Positions 6,179 to 12,788 are shown, counted from the first letter of the stretch. The stretch: DNA of 64,000 bases from Candidatus Poribacteria bacterium (GCA_022394775.1 JAGFCB010000020.1:984-64983), one strand, 5' to 3'. The notes: generated from the sequence alone by a model not told the origin. Program-made: numbers and translations.

Positions 6179-6207
6179 TTGACGAAGCGTCATTTTTGTG
6201 ATAATAT
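6179..6207 (+). promoter_or_regulatory. sigma70-like promoter (TTGACG-17-TAATAT) for the AT-rich cassette
   Basis: TTGACG 6179-6184, 17-nt spacer ending tgtga, TAATAT 6202-6207. Confidence 0.45.
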
Positions 6208-6292
6208 TCTTATACAAATTTTGTGAAAACGCTTGGTAAAATATGTGAAAAAATTACAATTACATCAAAATTAACCAAATTGGAGATTTGTC

Positions 6293-6520
6293 ATGGAACA
6301 AGAACGAATGTCCATAGAAGAAATGATACTGAAATATCCCGATCAGTGGTTGTTTATTACTGATTGTGAGATCAGCGAAAATACTGAGTTAATATCAGGT
6401 GTTGTATTAGTGAACAGCCCATCCAAAGATGAGGTTTATAAAGCCCTTACAAATCATAAGGGTGAATCCGCAATACGGTATACTGGAAAACTTCCAGAAG
6501 GGATGGCTTACTTACTCTAA
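6293..6520 (+). CDS. small cytoplasmic protein (DUF5678-like pattern), first gene of a two-gene cassette
   Basis: 75 aa. GGAG SD. Its stop overlaps the next start (TAATG at 6518-6522). The region is visibly more AT-rich than its flanks. Confidence 0.6.
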   Translation: MEQERMSIEEMILKYPDQWLFITDCEISENTELISGVVLVNSPSKDEVYKALTNHKGESAIRYTGKLPEGMAYLL

Positions 6521-6945
6521 TGGGACGTACGCGTTTTGATGGCAATGGTTCATCTATAAAACTAAACTTGCTGGTAAGCAGTATGGATTTAACTTCCCAT
6601 ACGAATGTTTTAGTGGCATTGGATACTGGAGCTTCTGTTACATCTATACCAACGTATGTTGCTAAAGCTTTAGGTTATGACCTTTCCGAGAATTGTGAGG
6701 AAATTGAAATTATTACTGGTAGCGGAACAAAAAAAGTAAAAGTAATCCACGTAAGCAAATTAACTGCTATAGGTGAGAGTCGTGAGAATATTAAAGTTTG
6801 GTGTTGTGACCTTCCGCTTGACTTAGATGTTTTAGGAGTATTAGGATACAATTTCTTGGAACACTTTGATATTAATATTTCATTTTCCTCCAATACGATT
6901 GAGATAAAGCCAATAGAAAAGAAGGAACAAGTGCTGGCACCTTAA
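6520..6945 (+). CDS. retropepsin-like (clan AA) aspartic protease
   Basis: 141 aa. Active-site-like motif VALDTGAS (D-T-G-A). Size and layout fit single-domain bacterial retropepsin-like proteases. Confidence 0.7.
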   Translation: MGRTRFDGNGSSIKLNLLVSSMDLTSHTNVLVALDTGASVTSIPTYVAKALGYDLSENCEEIEIITGSGTKKVKVIHVSKLTAIGESRENIKVWCCDLPLDLDVLGVLGYNFLEHFDINISFSSNTIEIKPIEKKEQVLAP

Positions 6946-7072
6946 TAGTCGAGGGGCAACACTTGCTCTTCTAAATCCCAACATTCCCTGGTTATCCATT
7001 CAGTACTTTTTCTTATTTCTTTATTTTTTAAACCCTTTCCCTCAAAAATCCCCTCTTATAACTACAGTCTAA

Positions 7073-10000
7073 TTGGCAAATCTAATTGGGAATTTGTTTA
7101 TGCAATACGATTCATCAACTTACACAGACCTGACAGACGAAGAACTCATTCGACGCGTGCAGGACGGGGATGAGGCGGCATTCGCCCAACTCGCAGCCCG
7201 CCATAGTTCCCGAATTTGGCAACTCGTTGTTTTCTACTCTCGCCAAACCCGCGATGCCGAAGAGATCTTTCAAGATATTTGGGTCGCCGTCTGGGAAAAC
7301 ATCGGCGGCTTACGCGAAGTCAGTAGTTTCGGGGCCTGGCTCCGAAAGATAGCCTGGACGACTTGCAGAAGATACTACGCTGCCAAGTCGCATACCAGAG
7401 GCGAAATCCTCCAGAGCGCGGAGAAACTCGCTGAGACGATTGATCGGGATGTGCTTGCCCGTTTTCGAGAGATGGAACTTCGAACGGCTGTGACGGAGGC
7501 GGTGCATCAACTACCGGAGCGGGTCCGCACCGTTGCGGTGCTGTACTACTTAGAGTTATGGACTGTCAAGGAAATTGCAGAGGAACTCGGCTTAGCGGTC
7601 GGTACCGTCAAGACGAGGCTCAGCCAAATTCGAGGGCTTTTGCGTGAAGAGTTTGGCGTTGAAGAAATTAAGAGGGAAACAACTATGGCGCGTGAAAAAG
7701 AAGCATCCAAGACATCACAGAAGGTAATTAAGATCTTCGGTGTAGGCGACGCGGGTGGCAACATTATCAAGTGGATGATCGCATCCGGTTTGGAAGGCGT
7801 GGAATTTTACGCTGTAAATACGGATTTAGAAGCACTCCGCACATGTGATGGTGCAACACAGGTGCAGATCGGTGCTGAAACCACACAAGGATTTGGCGCA
7901 GATGCGAATCCAGAGATCGGTAGAAGGGCAGCTGAAGAAGATTTGGAAAGCCTCAATGCCGCCATTGCAGACGCAAGCCTTGTTTTCGTTGCGGCTGGTA
8001 TGGGCGGTGGAACGGGGACAGGTGCTGCGCCCCTGATTGCTGCTCTTGCGCAAGAACACGGGGCTTTGACAATAGGTGTTGTGACACGTCCGTTTGATTT
8101 TGAGGGACAACGCCGCGCCGAACAGGCAGAATACGGACGCTATGAACTTCAAGGGAACACAGATGCCGTTATTGTCGTGCCGAATCAGCGGCTTCTCGAT
8201 ACTGTCGATGTAGAACCCTCACCGAGTGAAGCGTTCCGTATGAGCGACGAGACTGTGCTACTCGCCGTTAAAAGTGTCGCCGATATTATCACAGAGTCAG
8301 GCGAAATTAGCCTTGACTTCGCCGATGTAGCAAGCATCATGCAGGATGCTGGCACGGTGTTCATGGGCACAGGACGAGCAAGTGGTGAAAATCGGGCGCG
8401 GGTCGCTGCAGAAAGTGCTGTCGCCTCTCCACTCTTAGATGGGGAAAAAATGGAAAATGCTCCTGGGTTGATTGTCAACATCAGTGCCCCGTCGGATTTC
8501 ATGATGCATGAATTGAATGAGGCGATGGAGGTCATCAAAGATGCCTCGCCTGAAGCGCAGATTATCTTTGGATTGGTCTATAGGGACGATGATCCTGATG
8601 AAGATAAGGTTGATGCGACGATCCTTGCGACGGGGATTGAGACACAAAGCGAACCTACCACACCACTCTCCACTCGGCAGGATGGCACCTCGCCTGAAGG
8701 CGGTACCTATATTCCTTCTAAAACCGGTTCCGAATTTGTGCATCTACACAACCATAGCGAATATAGCATGCTTGACGGTGCGTGTCGTATTCCAGAGATG
8801 GTGGATTGGGCAGTCGAAAATAGCGTTCCTGCTGTCGCACTCACCGATCACGGCAACATGTTCGGGGCATGGGAACTCTACAACAAGGCAACAGAGGCAG
8901 GCGTCAACCCGGTCATCGGTTGTGAGGTGTATGTCGCACCTGATAGCCGCAAGACCCGTGCACAGAACCAGAACGGTCCTTATCATCTCACATTGCTCGC
9001 CGAGGATGCAACGGGTTACCAAAATCTTTTGGAATTGGTATCGCTCGGATATACGGAAGGCTTGAATCGCAGGCCGCGCATTGACATGGAAACCTTGCGT
9101 GAACACCGTGAAGGGATCATCGCGTTGACGGGGTGTATCCAAGCACAAGTGCCGCAACTCCTCTGCGCAAATCGGCGAGACGAAGCCGTTCAAAACTTCA
9201 AAACGCTGATGGAGATAATGGGGAAACACAACCTCTACGTTGAGATACAGAATCACTACATTGACAAGGAACTTCAGGCGTACCCAGTGATGGTGGAGTT
9301 GGCGAAAGAATTCAATCTTCCGCTTGTTGGGACAAACGATTGCCACTATCTCCACAAATCCGACCACGAGATGCACGATGTCCTTCTCTGTATTCAGACA
9401 AAAAGGACTGTCAACGACCAAGAGCGTCCCCGGTTTGACAACCACTTCTACTTTAAAAATGCTGACGAAATGCGCGAGGCACTTAAGGATTATCCACCGG
9501 AAGCCATTACCAACACGCTTGAAATTGCGAACCGGTGCAACCTTAGACTCGACTATCGACAAGACTCAATGCCGAAGTTTGAAATCCCCGAAGGGCACAC
9601 ACACGACAGTTATCTCAGAGAACTGTGTTATCAAGGCTTACGTAAAAAGTATGGTGAACTCTCCGAACCGATCCAACAGCGGATTGATTATGAACTGGAT
9701 ATAATCAAACAGTCAGGATACGCCAACTATTTCCTGATTGTCGAAGATTATGTCAACTATGCGCACAAACAGGGATACCCACTATCAGCCCGCGGTTCCG
9801 CCGCCAGTAGTCTGGTGCTGTATGCCCTTGATGTGATTGGTTTCAATCCGATGGATCACGGTTGTATGTTTGAGCGGTTCCTGAACCTTGAACGTCTCGC
9901 GCCACCCGATATTGATATCGATTTCGCCGACCGCGCCCGTGAATCTGTAATTGCGTACTTAACGAAAAAATACGGTGCGGATTCTGTCGGCAAAGTTGCT

Positions 10001-11374
10001 ACTTTTGCTACTTTGGGTGCGAAAGCCGCTATCAAAGATGTGGGACGCGCCCTTGAAGTGCCGCTTGAAAAAGTCGAAAAGTTGACACAGTTAATTCCGT
10101 CTTTCCCCGGAATCACGTTAGATGAGGTCTTGGAAAAAGTGCCTGAATTCCAGACACTTGCGGAACTCCCTGAGAATCGGGAATTGATTGAGATTAGCAA
10201 AGCGGTGGAGGGTATGAAACGGCACGTCTCCTGTCATGCCTCTGCGATTGTCGTCACGGAGGGACCGTTAACAAATTACGTCCCGTTGTTCAAGGATAAA
10301 CACGATCAAGTGGCAACGCAGTTTGAAGGAAAAATCGTTGAAGATGTCGGTATCATCAAATTCGATTCCCTCGGTTTACGGAGTCTTAGTGAGACATACG
10401 ACTGCCTTCAAATGATTAAGGCGAACCACGGGGTTGAGATCAAGTTAGAGGATATCCCGTTTGACGACAAGAAGACCTATTCACTGGTCAACAATGGATT
10501 TATCGCGGGTTTGTTCCAGTTAGAAGGCTCTTCTGGTATGTATCGGGTTGTTACCGAACTCAAACCAGATAACTTTGAAGAATTCTCCGCTATTCCCGCA
10601 CTCTATCGCCCGGGTCCGATAGAAAATGGGGACATGCAACGGTACATAGATCGGAAGAATGGGCTACAACCCGTAGAATCGTATATCCACCCGTCGGTTA
10701 AGGATGTACTCAAAGGCACGTACGGTGTATGCATCTATCAGGAACAGGTGATGCAGATCGCACACGATGTGGCTGGCTTTACACTCGCTGAGGCGGATAT
10801 ATTGCGCAGCGCGATGGGCAAAAAGGACCAAATACTGCTCAAAGAACAGCGTGAGAAATTCGTTGAAGGTGCAATGAAAAAAGGGCGCGCTAAAGGCGAA
10901 GCTGAAGCGATATTTGACTGGCTCGAACCTGCCGGTAGCTATGCCTTTAACAAGTCACATACGGTCGCTTACTCGATGTTAGCGTACCGTATGGCGTACC
11001 TGAAAACCCACTATCCGCACGAGTTCATGGCGGCAATGATGACCGGCGAGTCGGGCGATTCAATGAAAATTGCCCGATACCGAGAAGAGTGTAGAAAACT
11101 CGCTGATTTTCTGGGTGTAGAAATTAACCTGCTTCCGTTGAATGTGAACAGTAGTGAGAAAGGCTATACGGTGGAAGGCAATGCCATCCGTTCTGGGTTT
11201 GTCACTGTAAAAGGAATGTCGAATGAATTGATAGATCAGATTTTAGCAAAGAGAACATCTGATGGCGCGTTTGACTCGTTAGAAGATTTCGGGACGCGGG
11301 TAGACGATGTGGATGGACAAGTTATTGACACCCTCATTAGGGGCGGTGCATTTGATGCCATTTCCGGGGCATAG
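7073..11374 (+). CDS. single ORF fusing an ECF sigma-70 family factor, an FtsZ GTPase core and DNA polymerase III alpha (DnaE, lacking the C-terminal third)
   Basis: 1433 codons with no in-frame stop (TTG at 7073; first ATG at 7100). The domain calls below rest on strong signature motifs. The stop is TAG at 11372-11374. Confidence 0.7.
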   Translation: MANLIGNLFMQYDSSTYTDLTDEELIRRVQDGDEAAFAQLAARHSSRIWQLVVFYSRQTRDAEEIFQDIWVAVWENIGGLREVSSFGAWLRKIAWTTCRRYYAAKSHTRGEILQSAEKLAETIDRDVLARFREMELRTAVTEAVHQLPERVRTVAVLYYLELWTVKEIAEELGLAVGTVKTRLSQIRGLLREEFGVEEIKRETTMAREKEASKTSQKVIKIFGVGDAGGNIIKWMIASGLEGVEFYAVNTDLEALRTCDGATQVQIGAETTQGFGADANPEIGRRAAEEDLESLNAAIADASLVFVAAGMGGGTGTGAAPLIAALAQEHGALTIGVVTRPFDFEGQRRAEQAEYGRYELQGNTDAVIVVPNQRLLDTVDVEPSPSEAFRMSDETVLLAVKSVADIITESGEISLDFADVASIMQDAGTVFMGTGRASGENRARVAAESAVASPLLDGEKMENAPGLIVNISAPSDFMMHELNEAMEVIKDASPEAQIIFGLVYRDDDPDEDKVDATILATGIETQSEPTTPLSTRQDGTSPEGGTYIPSKTGSEFVHLHNHSEYSMLDGACRIPEMVDWAVENSVPAVALTDHGNMFGAWELYNKATEAGVNPVIGCEVYVAPDSRKTRAQNQNGPYHLTLLAEDATGYQNLLELVSLGYTEGLNRRPRIDMETLREHREGIIALTGCIQAQVPQLLCANRRDEAVQNFKTLMEIMGKHNLYVEIQNHYIDKELQAYPVMVELAKEFNLPLVGTNDCHYLHKSDHEMHDVLLCIQTKRTVNDQERPRFDNHFYFKNADEMREALKDYPPEAITNTLEIANRCNLRLDYRQDSMPKFEIPEGHTHDSYLRELCYQGLRKKYGELSEPIQQRIDYELDIIKQSGYANYFLIVEDYVNYAHKQGYPLSARGSAASSLVLYALDVIGFNPMDHGCMFERFLNLERLAPPDIDIDFADRARESVIAYLTKKYGADSVGKVATFATLGAKAAIKDVGRALEVPLEKVEKLTQLIPSFPGITLDEVLEKVPEFQTLAELPENRELIEISKAVEGMKRHVSCHASAIVVTEGPLTNYVPLFKDKHDQVATQFEGKIVEDVGIIKFDSLGLRSLSETYDCLQMIKANHGVEIKLEDIPFDDKKTYSLVNNGFIAGLFQLEGSSGMYRVVTELKPDNFEEFSAIPALYRPGPIENGDMQRYIDRKNGLQPVESYIHPSVKDVLKGTYGVCIYQEQVMQIAHDVAGFTLAEADILRSAMGKKDQILLKEQREKFVEGAMKKGRAKGEAEAIFDWLEPAGSYAFNKSHTVAYSMLAYRMAYLKTHYPHEFMAAMMTGESGDSMKIARYREECRKLADFLGVEINLLPLNVNSSEKGYTVEGNAIRSGFVTVKGMSNELIDQILAKRTSDGAFDSLEDFGTRVDDVDGQVIDTLIRGGAFDAISGA
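7100..7669 (+). other. ECF sigma factor module (regions 2 and 4)
   Basis: DEELIRRVQDGDEAAFAQL, FQDIWVAVWENIGGLRE and FGAWLRKIAWTTCRRYY (region 2). LPERVRTVAVLYYLELWTVKEIAEELGLAVGTVKTRLSQIRGLLREEF (region 4 HTH). Confidence 0.85.
7685..8641 (+). other. FtsZ module (GTPase plus C-terminal core domain, no C-terminal anchoring peptide)
   Basis: The in-frame ATG at 7685 is preceded by AAGAGGG (7670-7676). IKIFGVGDAGGN, GFGADANPEIGRRAAEE, tubulin signature GMGGGTGTGAAP, VVTRPFDFEG, T7-like SLDFADV. Collinear with E. coli FtsZ along the whole core. Confidence 0.85.
8735..11371 (+). other. DnaE module: PHP domain, palm/thumb/fingers and HhH; ends before the clamp-binding/OB/tau-binding regions
   Basis: FVHLHNHSEYSMLDG (PHP), GSAASSLVLYAL, catalytic PPDIDIDF and KFDSLGL, HASAIVV, FNKSHTVAYS. 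Terminal sequence is LIRGGAFDAISGA-stop. Confidence 0.85.
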
Positions 11375-11393
11375 TTTCGCAAATGCCTCTTTC

Positions 11394-11420
11394 GCTGGCG
11401 GGGTTTGCATCCCCGCCAAT
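11394..11420. terminator. GC-rich hairpin between convergent genes (related to REP family B)
   Basis: gctggcgggg-tttgca-tccccgccaa, located between the fusion-ORF stop (11374) and the convergent gene end (11451). Confidence 0.5.
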
Positions 11421-11450
11421 CCGAATCAGACCTCAGTATTATAAACGAGA

Positions 11451-12788
11451 CTATTTTGCCAGATCCCGTGCCTCTTTGAATTTCTCTTTAGCGAATTGTC
11501 CCCATTCCTTGATTTTTTCGTTGCGGACTATTGAATCTTTCCAAGCACCCTTTGCGAGTTCCATCGCCGCTTCTTCGGTTATCGGCATCTTCGTTAAAGC
11601 TGCAATTGCCGCTTCCCGTTTTGCGGGATCCTTACACTTCCGAATGGCTTTCCACGCGTTGACGAGATCCTTATGCGAAGTGATAATCAGAACCCCGAAG
11701 AGCTCGTTGACGAGATCCCATCGGATACTGCCTTTATCTGAGTCGTATTGGAATGGAGATACTTCCATAGCAAACGGGTTTGGAACGATGCATCTTTCGC
11801 CGAGTTTATCATAGAGTGCTGGCAGCACGCTTGCGCGGTTTAAACCGCCTTTCCATTCAGGTCCCTCTGGATCGGTGTCTCGGAGCATCCAGAGTTTTTG
11901 TGCGTTTTCCGATAAAACGAACTCAAGAAATTTTTGCGCGACCGGCAAGTTCGGAGCCCCTTTAAGGATAGCAATGGGATCAGCCGTAACGACTGTGCCC
12001 TCTGCGGGGACGACGTATTTAATCTTATCTGCACCGACGACGGCGATCTGACCATAGGCATAAAAATCAATGGCGAGCCCATAAATGACTTGTCCCGCGA
12101 CAACATCTGTTGGGATAGCATTGGCACCCGCAGAGAAACCGCGAACATTCCCCCCAATTTTTGTTAAAAGTGCAAACCCATCTTCCCATCCGACGGTTTG
12201 AAGGATAATCTCATATATCATGTGTGCAGAACCGCTCTCTCTCGGATCGGCTGCACCAATTTTACCGAGCAATTCCAAGTTCCCCAAGTCTTGCCATGCT
12301 GTCGCTTTCGGGAGTTTCAACAGTTCCCGAAGTTCTTCATTGTACATGATACCGAAATTCGATAACGCTGCGCCATACCACTGATATTCGGCATCATAGA
12401 GCGGAATCCCGTGGAACGATTGCGCTATCTGCTCAAGTTGCGTTCCGGGCAACTCGTAAGCGTGGAGCCATCCCATATTTGAAAGTCGAAGGTAGTTATC
12501 TGTGCCGCCACCAAAGAAAATATCGATACCAATGCCGTCCGGCACGCGTTTAAATTCCGATTCAATGAACCGATAGTTAGAAGAGGTTCCCCCTACATCT
12601 CGCCAATCGGTTTTGACGGTTCTACCTGTCTGTTTTTCGTACCACTTCTCAAAATTTTTGCCAAACTCTGTTTCAATGCCCTCTGGATGTGGGGAGATAA
12701 TGATGAGTTCATCTTGCGCGAATGAGAGCAGGGGTAGTACTAAAAGAGATAATATTGTTGCCAGTACCACGGGCTTAAAATCGGACAT
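11451..12788 (-). CDS. ABC transporter periplasmic substrate-binding protein (family 1, iron(III)/polyamine-type), orphan
   Basis: 445 aa with a signal peptide (LLVLPLLSFAQDE). Typical SBP N-terminus IISPHPEGIETEF...WRDVGGTS. No permease or ATPase gene is adjacent. Confidence 0.75.
   Translation of the reverse strand: MSDFKPVVLATILSLLVLPLLSFAQDELIIISPHPEGIETEFGKNFEKWYEKQTGRTVKTDWRDVGGTSSNYRFIESEFKRVPDGIGIDIFFGGGTDNYLRLSNMGWLHAYELPGTQLEQIAQSFHGIPLYDAEYQWYGAALSNFGIMYNEELRELLKLPKATAWQDLGNLELLGKIGAADPRESGSAHMIYEIILQTVGWEDGFALLTKIGGNVRGFSAGANAIPTDVVAGQVIYGLAIDFYAYGQIAVVGADKIKYVVPAEGTVVTADPIAILKGAPNLPVAQKFLEFVLSENAQKLWMLRDTDPEGPEWKGGLNRASVLPALYDKLGERCIVPNPFAMEVSPFQYDSDKGSIRWDLVNELFGVLIITSHKDLVNAWKAIRKCKDPAKREAAIAALTKMPITEEAAMELAKGAWKDSIVRNEKIKEWGQFAKEKFKEARDLAK

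Follow-up and report, generated by a model that had tools for sequence, protein, structure and literature searches.

A sigma–FtsZ–DnaE fusion gene

The window analysed here is a 64,000-nt stretch of one contig (GCA_022394775.1 JAGFCB010000020.1:984–64983) from a member of Candidatus Poribacteria, a group of sponge-symbiont bacteria. A single open reading frame (ORF) at positions 7073–11374 of the window (+ strand, 1433 aa) encodes an extracytoplasmic function (ECF) sigma factor, a copy of FtsZ, and a segment of DnaE, the alpha subunit of DNA polymerase III (Pol III). This DnaE segment is a conserved accessory paralogue under selection and forms the last module of a sigma–FtsZ–Pol III alpha core protein; it stops in the helix–hairpin–helix (HhH) region. 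The ORF comprises the following parts:

7100..7684, + strand: ECF sigma module, aa 10–204, regions sigma2 and sigma4
7685..8665, + strand: FtsZ module, aa 205–531, beginning at a conserved Met205; globular domain alone
8666..8728, + strand: FtsZ–DnaE linker of 21 residues, aa 532–552
8729..9562, + strand: DnaE PHP domain, aa 553–830 (Pfam PHP at 557–728), with all nine metal ligands present
9563..11107, + strand: DnaE palm, thumb and fingers, aa 831–1345 (Pfam DNA_pol3_alpha, the 'NTPase' palm, at 846–1101; finger at 1110–1271)
11108..11374, + strand: stub of the HhH (beta-binding) domain with the TAG stop, aa 1346–1433 (Pfam HHH_6 at 1351–1431)

The true start is probably the ATG at 7100 rather than the TTG at 7073, because orthologues begin MQYDSS or MRYDSS. 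Within the sigma module, Pfam places sigma2 (Sigma70_r2) at aa 41–106 and sigma4 at aa 139–191 (r4_2 at 139–187), and the match to TIGR02937 reaches 82.8 bits (cut-off 42.9). Region sigma3 is absent, and sigma2 and sigma4 are followed by an extension of about 1230 aa, which places the protein among ECF sigma factors with a C-terminal extension. The FtsZ module is covered by the Tubulin and FtsZ_C families over aa 219–523 and matches TIGR00065 over aa 206–531 with 336 bits (cut-off 295); it keeps the tubulin-type GTPase features (GGGTGTG and the T7 loop) and lacks the C-terminal anchoring peptide. The FtsZ/DnaE junction, SEFVHLHNHSEYS, is kept in all orthologues. The start codon of the DnaE module is gone, the housekeeping sequence MAAEFVHLH reading TGSEFVHLH in the fusion, and the module therefore cannot be produced alone.

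At the sigma/FtsZ junction (window 7670–7687), a Shine–Dalgarno-like AAGAGGG precedes the in-frame Met205 codon (ATG) by 8 nt. This methionine is present in all 117 representatives covering the column, and paralogues also have Met there. Internal initiation at Met205, giving a sigma-less FtsZ–DnaE product, is possible; no comparable internal start was found at the FtsZ/DnaE junction.

Extent of the DnaE module

The DnaE part matches TIGR00594 with 1004 bits (cut-off 434), together with the families PHP, DNA_pol3_alpha and DNA_pol3_finger, and is thus a C-family polymerase. Its catalytic residues Asp946 and Asp948 (PDIDIDF, nt 9908–9916) and Asp1098 (KFD, nt 10364–10366) align with D463, D465 and D618 of Taq alpha, and the PHP metal ligands are H557, H559, D568, H593, E618, H638, C688, D756 and H758. 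A preliminary description of the window had noted an apparently intact polymerase active site in a DnaE part that ends after the HhH region, short of the clamp-binding motif, OB fold and tau-binding domain. Both observations hold. The aligned triad is kept in at least 117 of 121 representatives, and alignment to Pol III alpha is collinear up to the HhH, the alignments to Protein Data Bank entries running to residue 947 of 1220 in Taq alpha and 891 of 1160 in E. coli alpha. Full-length NCBIfam DnaE models are matched at positions 4–884 of 1146 only, leaving 885–1146 unmatched.

The C-terminus of the ORF reads ...LIRGGAFDAISGA, followed by TAG at 11372–11374. This stop falls four residues past GAFDAI and about 25 residues short of the position of the clamp-binding motif; the housekeeping DnaE of the same genome reads ...SGAFDSLEG followed by 25 aa, the clamp motif QMSLF, the OB fold and the C-terminal domain. 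In the fusion, the internal beta-clamp motif (QxxLF type) is absent after the HhH, and neither an OB fold nor a tau-binding C-terminal domain occurs in the ORF or in any frame beyond the stop. None of 121 relatives carries DnaE sequence beyond this end point. The possibility raised earlier, that the missing domains are present in compact form inside the ORF, was rejected because Pfam and NCBIfam assign the whole chain to sigma, FtsZ, the linker and DnaE positions 4–884, leaving no room for a hidden OB or tau domain.

Polymerase activity is retained by E. coli alpha constructs such as 1–910 and 1–917. The end of the fusion almost coincides with the ends of these two constructs as crystallised (2HNH, 2HQA).

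Among DnaE1 equivalogs, the module scores 1029 against PRK05673 (cut-off 1002) and 1033 against PRK06826 (cut-off 1260). Assignment to DnaE2/ImuC was rejected, given a score of 577 against NF004225 (cut-off 939), the lack of an imuA–imuB context, and a tree that puts the module inside the DnaE1 of its own family. An intein-split DnaE was likewise rejected: Pfam reports no intein family, PRK09532 scores 596 (cut-off 1525), and a gene for the C-terminal fragment was not found. The module is a C-family polymerase, DnaE1 by descent, without the features that define the holoenzyme subunit (clamp motif, OB fold and tau-binding domain).

Gene end and assembly

All three forward frames beyond the stop are closed, and two features follow it:

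11396..11418: GC-rich hairpin GGCGGGGU...AUCCCCGCC, between two convergent genes
11451–12788, − strand: convergent gene encoding a solute-binding protein

These confirm the earlier statement that no forward frame continues the gene and that a hairpin and a convergent gene lie past its stop; continuation in another frame or by read-through was rejected on the same evidence. The hairpin has an 8-bp stem (−23 kcal/mol, z = −2.4) and no U tract, and a canonical intrinsic terminator past the stop was therefore rejected. Sequence like the hairpin region is also found 3' of the stop in genomes G060 and G118. In one relative (P0040, 1743 aa), the stop in the HhH region is lost and the frame reads into an unrelated, lipoprotein-like sequence of about 340 aa (MNSSCGC...).

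The fusion site is internal to a 65.8-kb contig (host genome 5.9 Mb in 331 contigs, 94% complete), and the identical gene end and neighbours also occur in closed genomes. Upstream, both fusion-bearing genera share the order AP endonuclease 2, MR/MLE enolase-type enzyme, short-chain dehydrogenase, TatD, BPD_transp_2 permease and fusion, which rules out a misassembly. On these grounds (interior position, synteny and closed genomes), a contig end, a chimera and a misjoin were rejected, including the truncation or misjoin near 11374 that had been named as a possible cause of the short ORF.

Housekeeping copies of dnaE and ftsZ

A separate full-length dnaE is encoded on another contig of the same genome (1175 aa) and is 77% identical to the fused segment over the shared 880 residues; the replicative role belongs to this gene. 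A separate housekeeping ftsZ is 60% identical to the fused copy; the fused FtsZ has neither its long linker nor its anchoring peptide, DWEIPAFLRVQ. A tblastn search of the whole genome with the C-terminal 295 aa of the housekeeping DnaE returned the housekeeping gene alone, with no stand-alone C-terminal fragment, and the Pfam scan of the fusion showed no intein. Together, these two results rule out a split DnaE. The earlier suggestion of a split or accessory DnaE is thus borne out in its second half, given the full-length gene elsewhere, and fails in its first.

Selection and residue conservation

Ratios of nonsynonymous to synonymous divergence (dN/dS) were estimated by the Nei–Gojobori method in four species, with four pairs behind the values for sigma and FtsZ and six behind those for the DnaE domains:

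Sigma: dN/dS 0.05–0.11
FtsZ: dN/dS 0.15–0.22
Whole DnaE module: dN/dS 0.08–0.14
Housekeeping DnaE, same species: dN/dS 0.06–0.08
PHP: dN/dS 0.04–0.07; dN 0.6–0.8 times that of the housekeeping copy in 5/6 pairs
Palm and thumb: dN/dS 0.05–0.10; dN about 1–2 times that of the housekeeping copy
Fingers: dN/dS 0.09–0.17; dN 2–3 times that of the housekeeping copy in 5/6 pairs
HhH stub: dN/dS 0.15–0.87; dN 5–12 times that of the housekeeping copy

A gradient of relaxation thus runs from N to C inside the DnaE module, with the HhH stub near neutral in the closest pair (dN/dS 0.87). Among 121 aligned cluster representatives, Asp946, Asp948 and Asp1098 are kept in 121, 117 and 120 sequences, respectively, and each of the nine PHP ligands in 117–121, so that the catalytic residues of the polymerase and PHP sites are conserved overall in 97–100% of representatives. 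The GTP-binding and T7-loop residues of FtsZ taken together are kept in 104–119 of the 121, and those of GGGTGTG and the T7 loop in at least 114. Strong purifying selection and intact active sites show that the module is functional and not decaying. Decay, which the preliminary description had offered as one explanation of the truncation, does not describe the PHP to finger domains (dN/dS 0.04–0.17, compared with 0.06–0.08 for the housekeeping DnaE; residues kept; frames intact in more than 100 lineages). It applies in part to the HhH tail, which is relaxed and often lost, and to sister species in which the module is deleted.

Distribution and origin of the fusion

A homologue search covering 5.8 billion proteins returned more than 100 protein clusters in which sigma, FtsZ and DnaE are joined in the same way, at 58–92% identity. 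All named clusters belong to Candidatus Poribacteria, several of them on closed chromosomes of 4–6.7 Mb. In a sample of 121 genomes from the phylum, the triple fusion occurs in 31 of 45 species of the window's genus and 14 of 32 species of its sister genus; outside the family it was found in none of 38 genomes among the matches listed. Present annotations name these genes either 'DNA polymerase III subunit alpha' or 'cell division protein FtsZ', which calls for caution in annotation.

A maximum-likelihood tree was built from the DnaE sequence of 18 fusions and 34 stand-alone genes. In it, the fusion modules form one clade (SH-aLRT 98) nested in the housekeeping DnaE of the family, which indicates that the module stems from one duplication of the lineage's own dnaE. 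The two genera are sister sub-clades of the fusion modules, with branches longer than those of the housekeeping genes. Gene conversion with the housekeeping dnaE was rejected, given the separate clades and a dS of 1.5–2.0 between the fusion and housekeeping DnaE within one genome.

A third DnaE copy, nearly full-length, is present in some sister-genus species, for example at L056 1228–4731 (− strand, G031) and L061 2030–5302 (+ strand, G029). These copies have the clamp motif (QLSLF or QLPLF) and the OB fold and form their own clade, so that dnaE has been duplicated at least twice in the family.

Loss and exchange of C-terminal modules

Several relatives carry altered forms of the fusion at this locus. 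In G061, from another genus of the family, the same locus (L079 1447–3102, − strand) encodes sigma–FtsZ with a 15-residue DnaE remnant ending ...SEFVHLHNHSEYSLLV and a stop; in G017, sigma–FtsZ is followed by an insertion-sequence transposase, and in G016, G072 and G115 the locus encodes a sigma–FtsZ protein of 554–574 aa. An in-frame internal deletion in G100 (L093 1389–3491, − strand) joins the first ~80 residues of PHP to the last ~60 of the fingers. In G054, of the same genus and at the same locus (L091 1504–3246), the orthologous sigma (74% identical) and the beginning of the FtsZ leader precede an entire DnaN sliding clamp, which has all three domains and starts at its own Met. In five further species of the genus (G066, G078, G087, G108 and G115), an orthologous sigma, 71–74% identical, heads an ORF of 476–616 aa.

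The genome of the window also encodes two sigma-fusion paralogues whose sigma parts are 57–59% identical. One (C197 19676–20875, − strand, 400 aa) joins sigma to the GTPase half of FtsZ alone, and the other (C276 10690–13263, + strand, 858 aa) joins sigma to WD40 repeats and is followed by more WD40 genes. Since modules are lost or swapped while sigma persists, we regard sigma as the constant part and the C-terminal modules as add-ons. Retention is graded, with sigma kept more than FtsZ, FtsZ more than the PHP to finger domains, and these more than the HhH.

Erosion of the HhH stub

All 59 representatives of a 'long' form, from both genera, end 0–8 residues past GAFD, and none reaches the clamp motif. 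This common end point indicates that the cut before the clamp-binding loop is ancestral to the present fusion. A 'short' form without the HhH stub accounts for 54 of 113 full-length representatives and ends just after ...DFLGVEI, with at least four kinds of tail (...EVNV, ...IILPDSAPL, ...DLPSLAANKS and ...EIDM). In a tree built from the part common to both forms, 16 switches between long and short are counted, and supported branches force at least 11 of them. Some may be 3'-end recombination, inflating the count of losses; scattered short forms share the tail ...IILPDSAPL.

The ...IILPDSAPL* tail of many short forms corresponds to a peptide encoded opposite the 3' end of the adjacent solute-binding-protein gene: on that strand, positions 11441–11473 of the window read ...ETILPDPVPL*. 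Short forms with this tail thus arose by a deletion that removed both the HhH-coding sequence and the hairpin and joined the finger domain to this spot. Little need remains for the HhH stub, whose loss is under way.

In G090 (L019 5575–5950), about 370 nt of unrelated, structured-looking sequence lie between the stop of the short form (...EINV*) and an ...IILPDSVPL* remnant; this stretch resembles a small insertion.

A promoter-like motif upstream of the fusion

A conserved motif precedes the gene:

7027..7065, + strand: promoter-like motif TTTAAACC-N17-CCTCTT(T)ATAAC, about 35–70 nt upstream of the ATG

In both fusion-bearing genera, the motif before the fusion gene hardly varies, and in sister species that have lost or exchanged the DnaE module it is retained. 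An exact scan of 31 family genomes with the pattern TTTAAACC-N17-CCTCTTTATAAC gave 0–4 copies per genome, and the reversed pattern, used as a control, gave none. Most copies lie ~45 nt upstream of sigma-fusion genes of this clade, and in the window's genome a related copy also precedes the sigma–WD40 paralogue. Further copies at C53:35802–35839 (+ strand), C70:15119–15155 (− strand) and C242:4433–4469 (− strand) precede two ABC-type permeases and one secreted WD40-like gene, which are candidate regulon members. A promoter scan found no sigma-70-type promoter upstream of the fusion. The motif is a candidate autoregulatory ECF-type promoter, as is typical of ECF sigma factors.

Possible roles of the fusion protein

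We propose that the protein is an autoregulated ECF sigma factor with exchangeable modules tied to replication and division, in which the DnaE core would serve as a DNA-end arm independent of the replisome; the evidence, drawn from sequence comparison, leaves this proposal evenly poised. The sigma factor would be the constant core, reading the conserved promoter before its own gene, and the C-terminal modules would be interchangeable arms for regulation or targeting, through which sigma activity would be linked to the state, or the position, of the division ring and replication intermediates. The arms would vary accordingly among relatives (FtsZ plus the DnaE core here, FtsZ alone or DnaN in sister species, WD40 in a paralogue). 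The DnaE core would most likely bind primer–template 3' ends outside the replisome and would probably still perform distributive synthesis or 3'–5' trimming, with the need for the module falling from its N to its C terminus. Several observations sit less easily with this proposal. The module is missing in about 30% of the species of the genus and is thus dispensable, which fits other models equally; the neighbouring genes (permease, solute-binding protein and M23 peptidase) give no functional hint; and the placement of FtsZ between sigma and DnaE is not accounted for. Furthermore, an intact polymerase triad and PHP site are not obviously needed by a purely regulatory arm, and an enzymatic role may be primary.

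The last point leads to a different assignment, in which the polymerase is the business end: a clamp- and tau-independent polymerase or exonuclease that the sigma module would bring to RNA polymerase, promoters or R-loops and the FtsZ module to the division site, where transcripts might serve it as primers or gaps near the septum might be filled. Conservation of the catalytic triad and of all PHP ligands, PHP and palm dN/dS values as low as in the housekeeping copy, the inability of the module to be made alone, and the near coincidence of its end with those of the crystallised E. coli constructs all favour such a role. We nevertheless think it unlikely, since sister species lose, gut or swap the module for the non-enzymatic DnaN while sigma stays, and the fingers and HhH, which hold DNA and dNTP, are 2–12 times more relaxed than in the housekeeping copy. 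The same comparative data bear on the earlier idea that the fused N-terminal modules replace clamp and tau contacts; they are compatible with it and point the opposite way, towards a sigma core with DnaE as an add-on. The copies of FtsZ, the DnaE core and DnaN could also form an integrated decoy or guard, mimicking hubs hit by phage or toxins so that binding by the attacker activates a sigma response, by analogy with defence systems. Exchangeable hub paralogues near the housekeeping sequence (77% for DnaE, 60% for FtsZ), a fast turnover between close relatives, by gain, loss and exchange, of the sort usual at defence loci, and the removal of docking elements for real replisome or divisome function would all suit a decoy. 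Against it, inspection of the neighbouring genes, in which no PADLOC search was made, revealed neither defence genes nor a prophage or mobile setting, and the genes associated with the motif are ABC-type permeases and WD40 proteins, which are not known defence effectors; we judge a decoy to be quite unlikely.

Lower still in probability, and improbable in our estimate, is a dominant-negative growth brake that would compete for RNA polymerase, cap FtsZ filaments and occupy primer ends without processive synthesis, thereby slowing symbiont growth. All three modules do lack their productive connecting parts (no FtsZ C-terminal peptide, no clamp or tau contacts), but poisoning needs neither conserved catalytic residues nor a conserved cognate promoter, and no toxin–antitoxin-like partner gene is present at the locus. 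That the segment is a functionless relic, whether a duplicate in decay, a chimeric assembly or half of a dnaE gene split in two, is very improbable. The near-neutral HhH tail of the closest pair, the many losses of the module and the fragmented, incomplete assembly could be read in this way, but the 4.3-kb frame is intact in lineages down to 58% identity, closed genomes included, dN/dS is 0.04–0.17 over most of the module, both genera share one end point, the locus is syntenic, and there is no C-terminal fragment or intein.

Comparison with known systems

Relative to replicative DnaE1 (E. coli, Thermus aquaticus and M. tuberculosis), the module has PHP, palm, thumb, finger and HhH in collinear order, with the Asp triad and nine ligands intact. 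It differs in lacking the clamp motif, OB fold, tau-binding domain and its own start codon, in standing behind sigma and FtsZ, in evolving 1.5–3.5 times faster, and in being dispensable in sister species. DnaE2/ImuC and the intein-split DnaE of cyanobacteria share with it the presence of a second C-family gene, and its length is near that of the cyanobacterial N-fragment; unlike the latter, it is cut after the HhH and not at the cyanobacterial split site.

ECF sigma factors with a C-terminal extension, such as ECF41 and ECF42, offer a closer likeness, having a sigma2–sigma4 core and a large extension in one chain (PMC3426412, PMC8999054, PMC7826278). As in these proteins, no anti-sigma gene adjoins the fusion, a promoter-like motif precedes its own gene, and paralogues bear extensions such as WD40. 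The difference lies in the extension itself, which here consists of about 1230 aa of replication and division paralogues instead of small sensor folds. A term search of a major paper on ECF reclassification gave no mention of Poribacteria or of an extension with FtsZ, tubulin or DNA polymerase. A full-text literature search found no description of a sigma–FtsZ–Pol III alpha fusion, and the union of these proteins in one polypeptide appears, as far as that search shows, to be previously undescribed.

In phage T4, gp55 and gp33 act with the gp45 sliding clamp in replication-coupled transcription. Phage Mu MuC works with the host beta clamp in clamp-coupled transcription (PMC12867686). In both cases, as in the fusion, an initiation factor is physically linked to a replication protein that binds replicating DNA or tracks along it, and the sigma–DnaN form of the sister species is the closest parallel, making a comparison with clamp-coupled transcription attractive. 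For the role proposed here, such coupling through a sliding clamp is the nearest functional analogy. In Poribacteria, the link is covalent and cellular, made through a polymerase core or a clamp copy, and is known here from sequence.

More broadly, it is possible, though we would not call it probable, that this family has evolved sigma factors carrying covalent, exchangeable copies of cellular hubs, acting on forks, primer ends and the Z ring or as decoys, and that the truncated DnaE is an active polymerase turned DNA-end sensor. Sigma factors are central to transcription, FtsZ to division and Pol III alpha to replication. If the proposal is true, transcription would depend directly on cell-cycle machines, in a cellular and covalent version of the clamp coupling of T4 and Mu; in the alternative meaning, the fusion would report attack on the replication and division machines. 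A Pol III alpha core that lacks the clamp motif, OB fold and tau-binding domain and is yet strongly selected, with intact active sites, suggests that a C-family core can serve outside the replisome. The triple fusion and the sigma–DnaN and sigma–FtsZ variants at one locus provide a testable system for how gene expression might be wired to replication and division.

Neighbouring genes

In the window, the neighbours of the fusion are a permease, an aspartic protease cassette and the solute-binding protein. The cassette, at 6179–6945 between the permease and the fusion, consists of a small ORF and a retropepsin-like aspartic protease gene. It is absent at the orthologous loci of other species, where the gap measures about 100–130 nt, and is therefore a recent insertion in the genome of the window.

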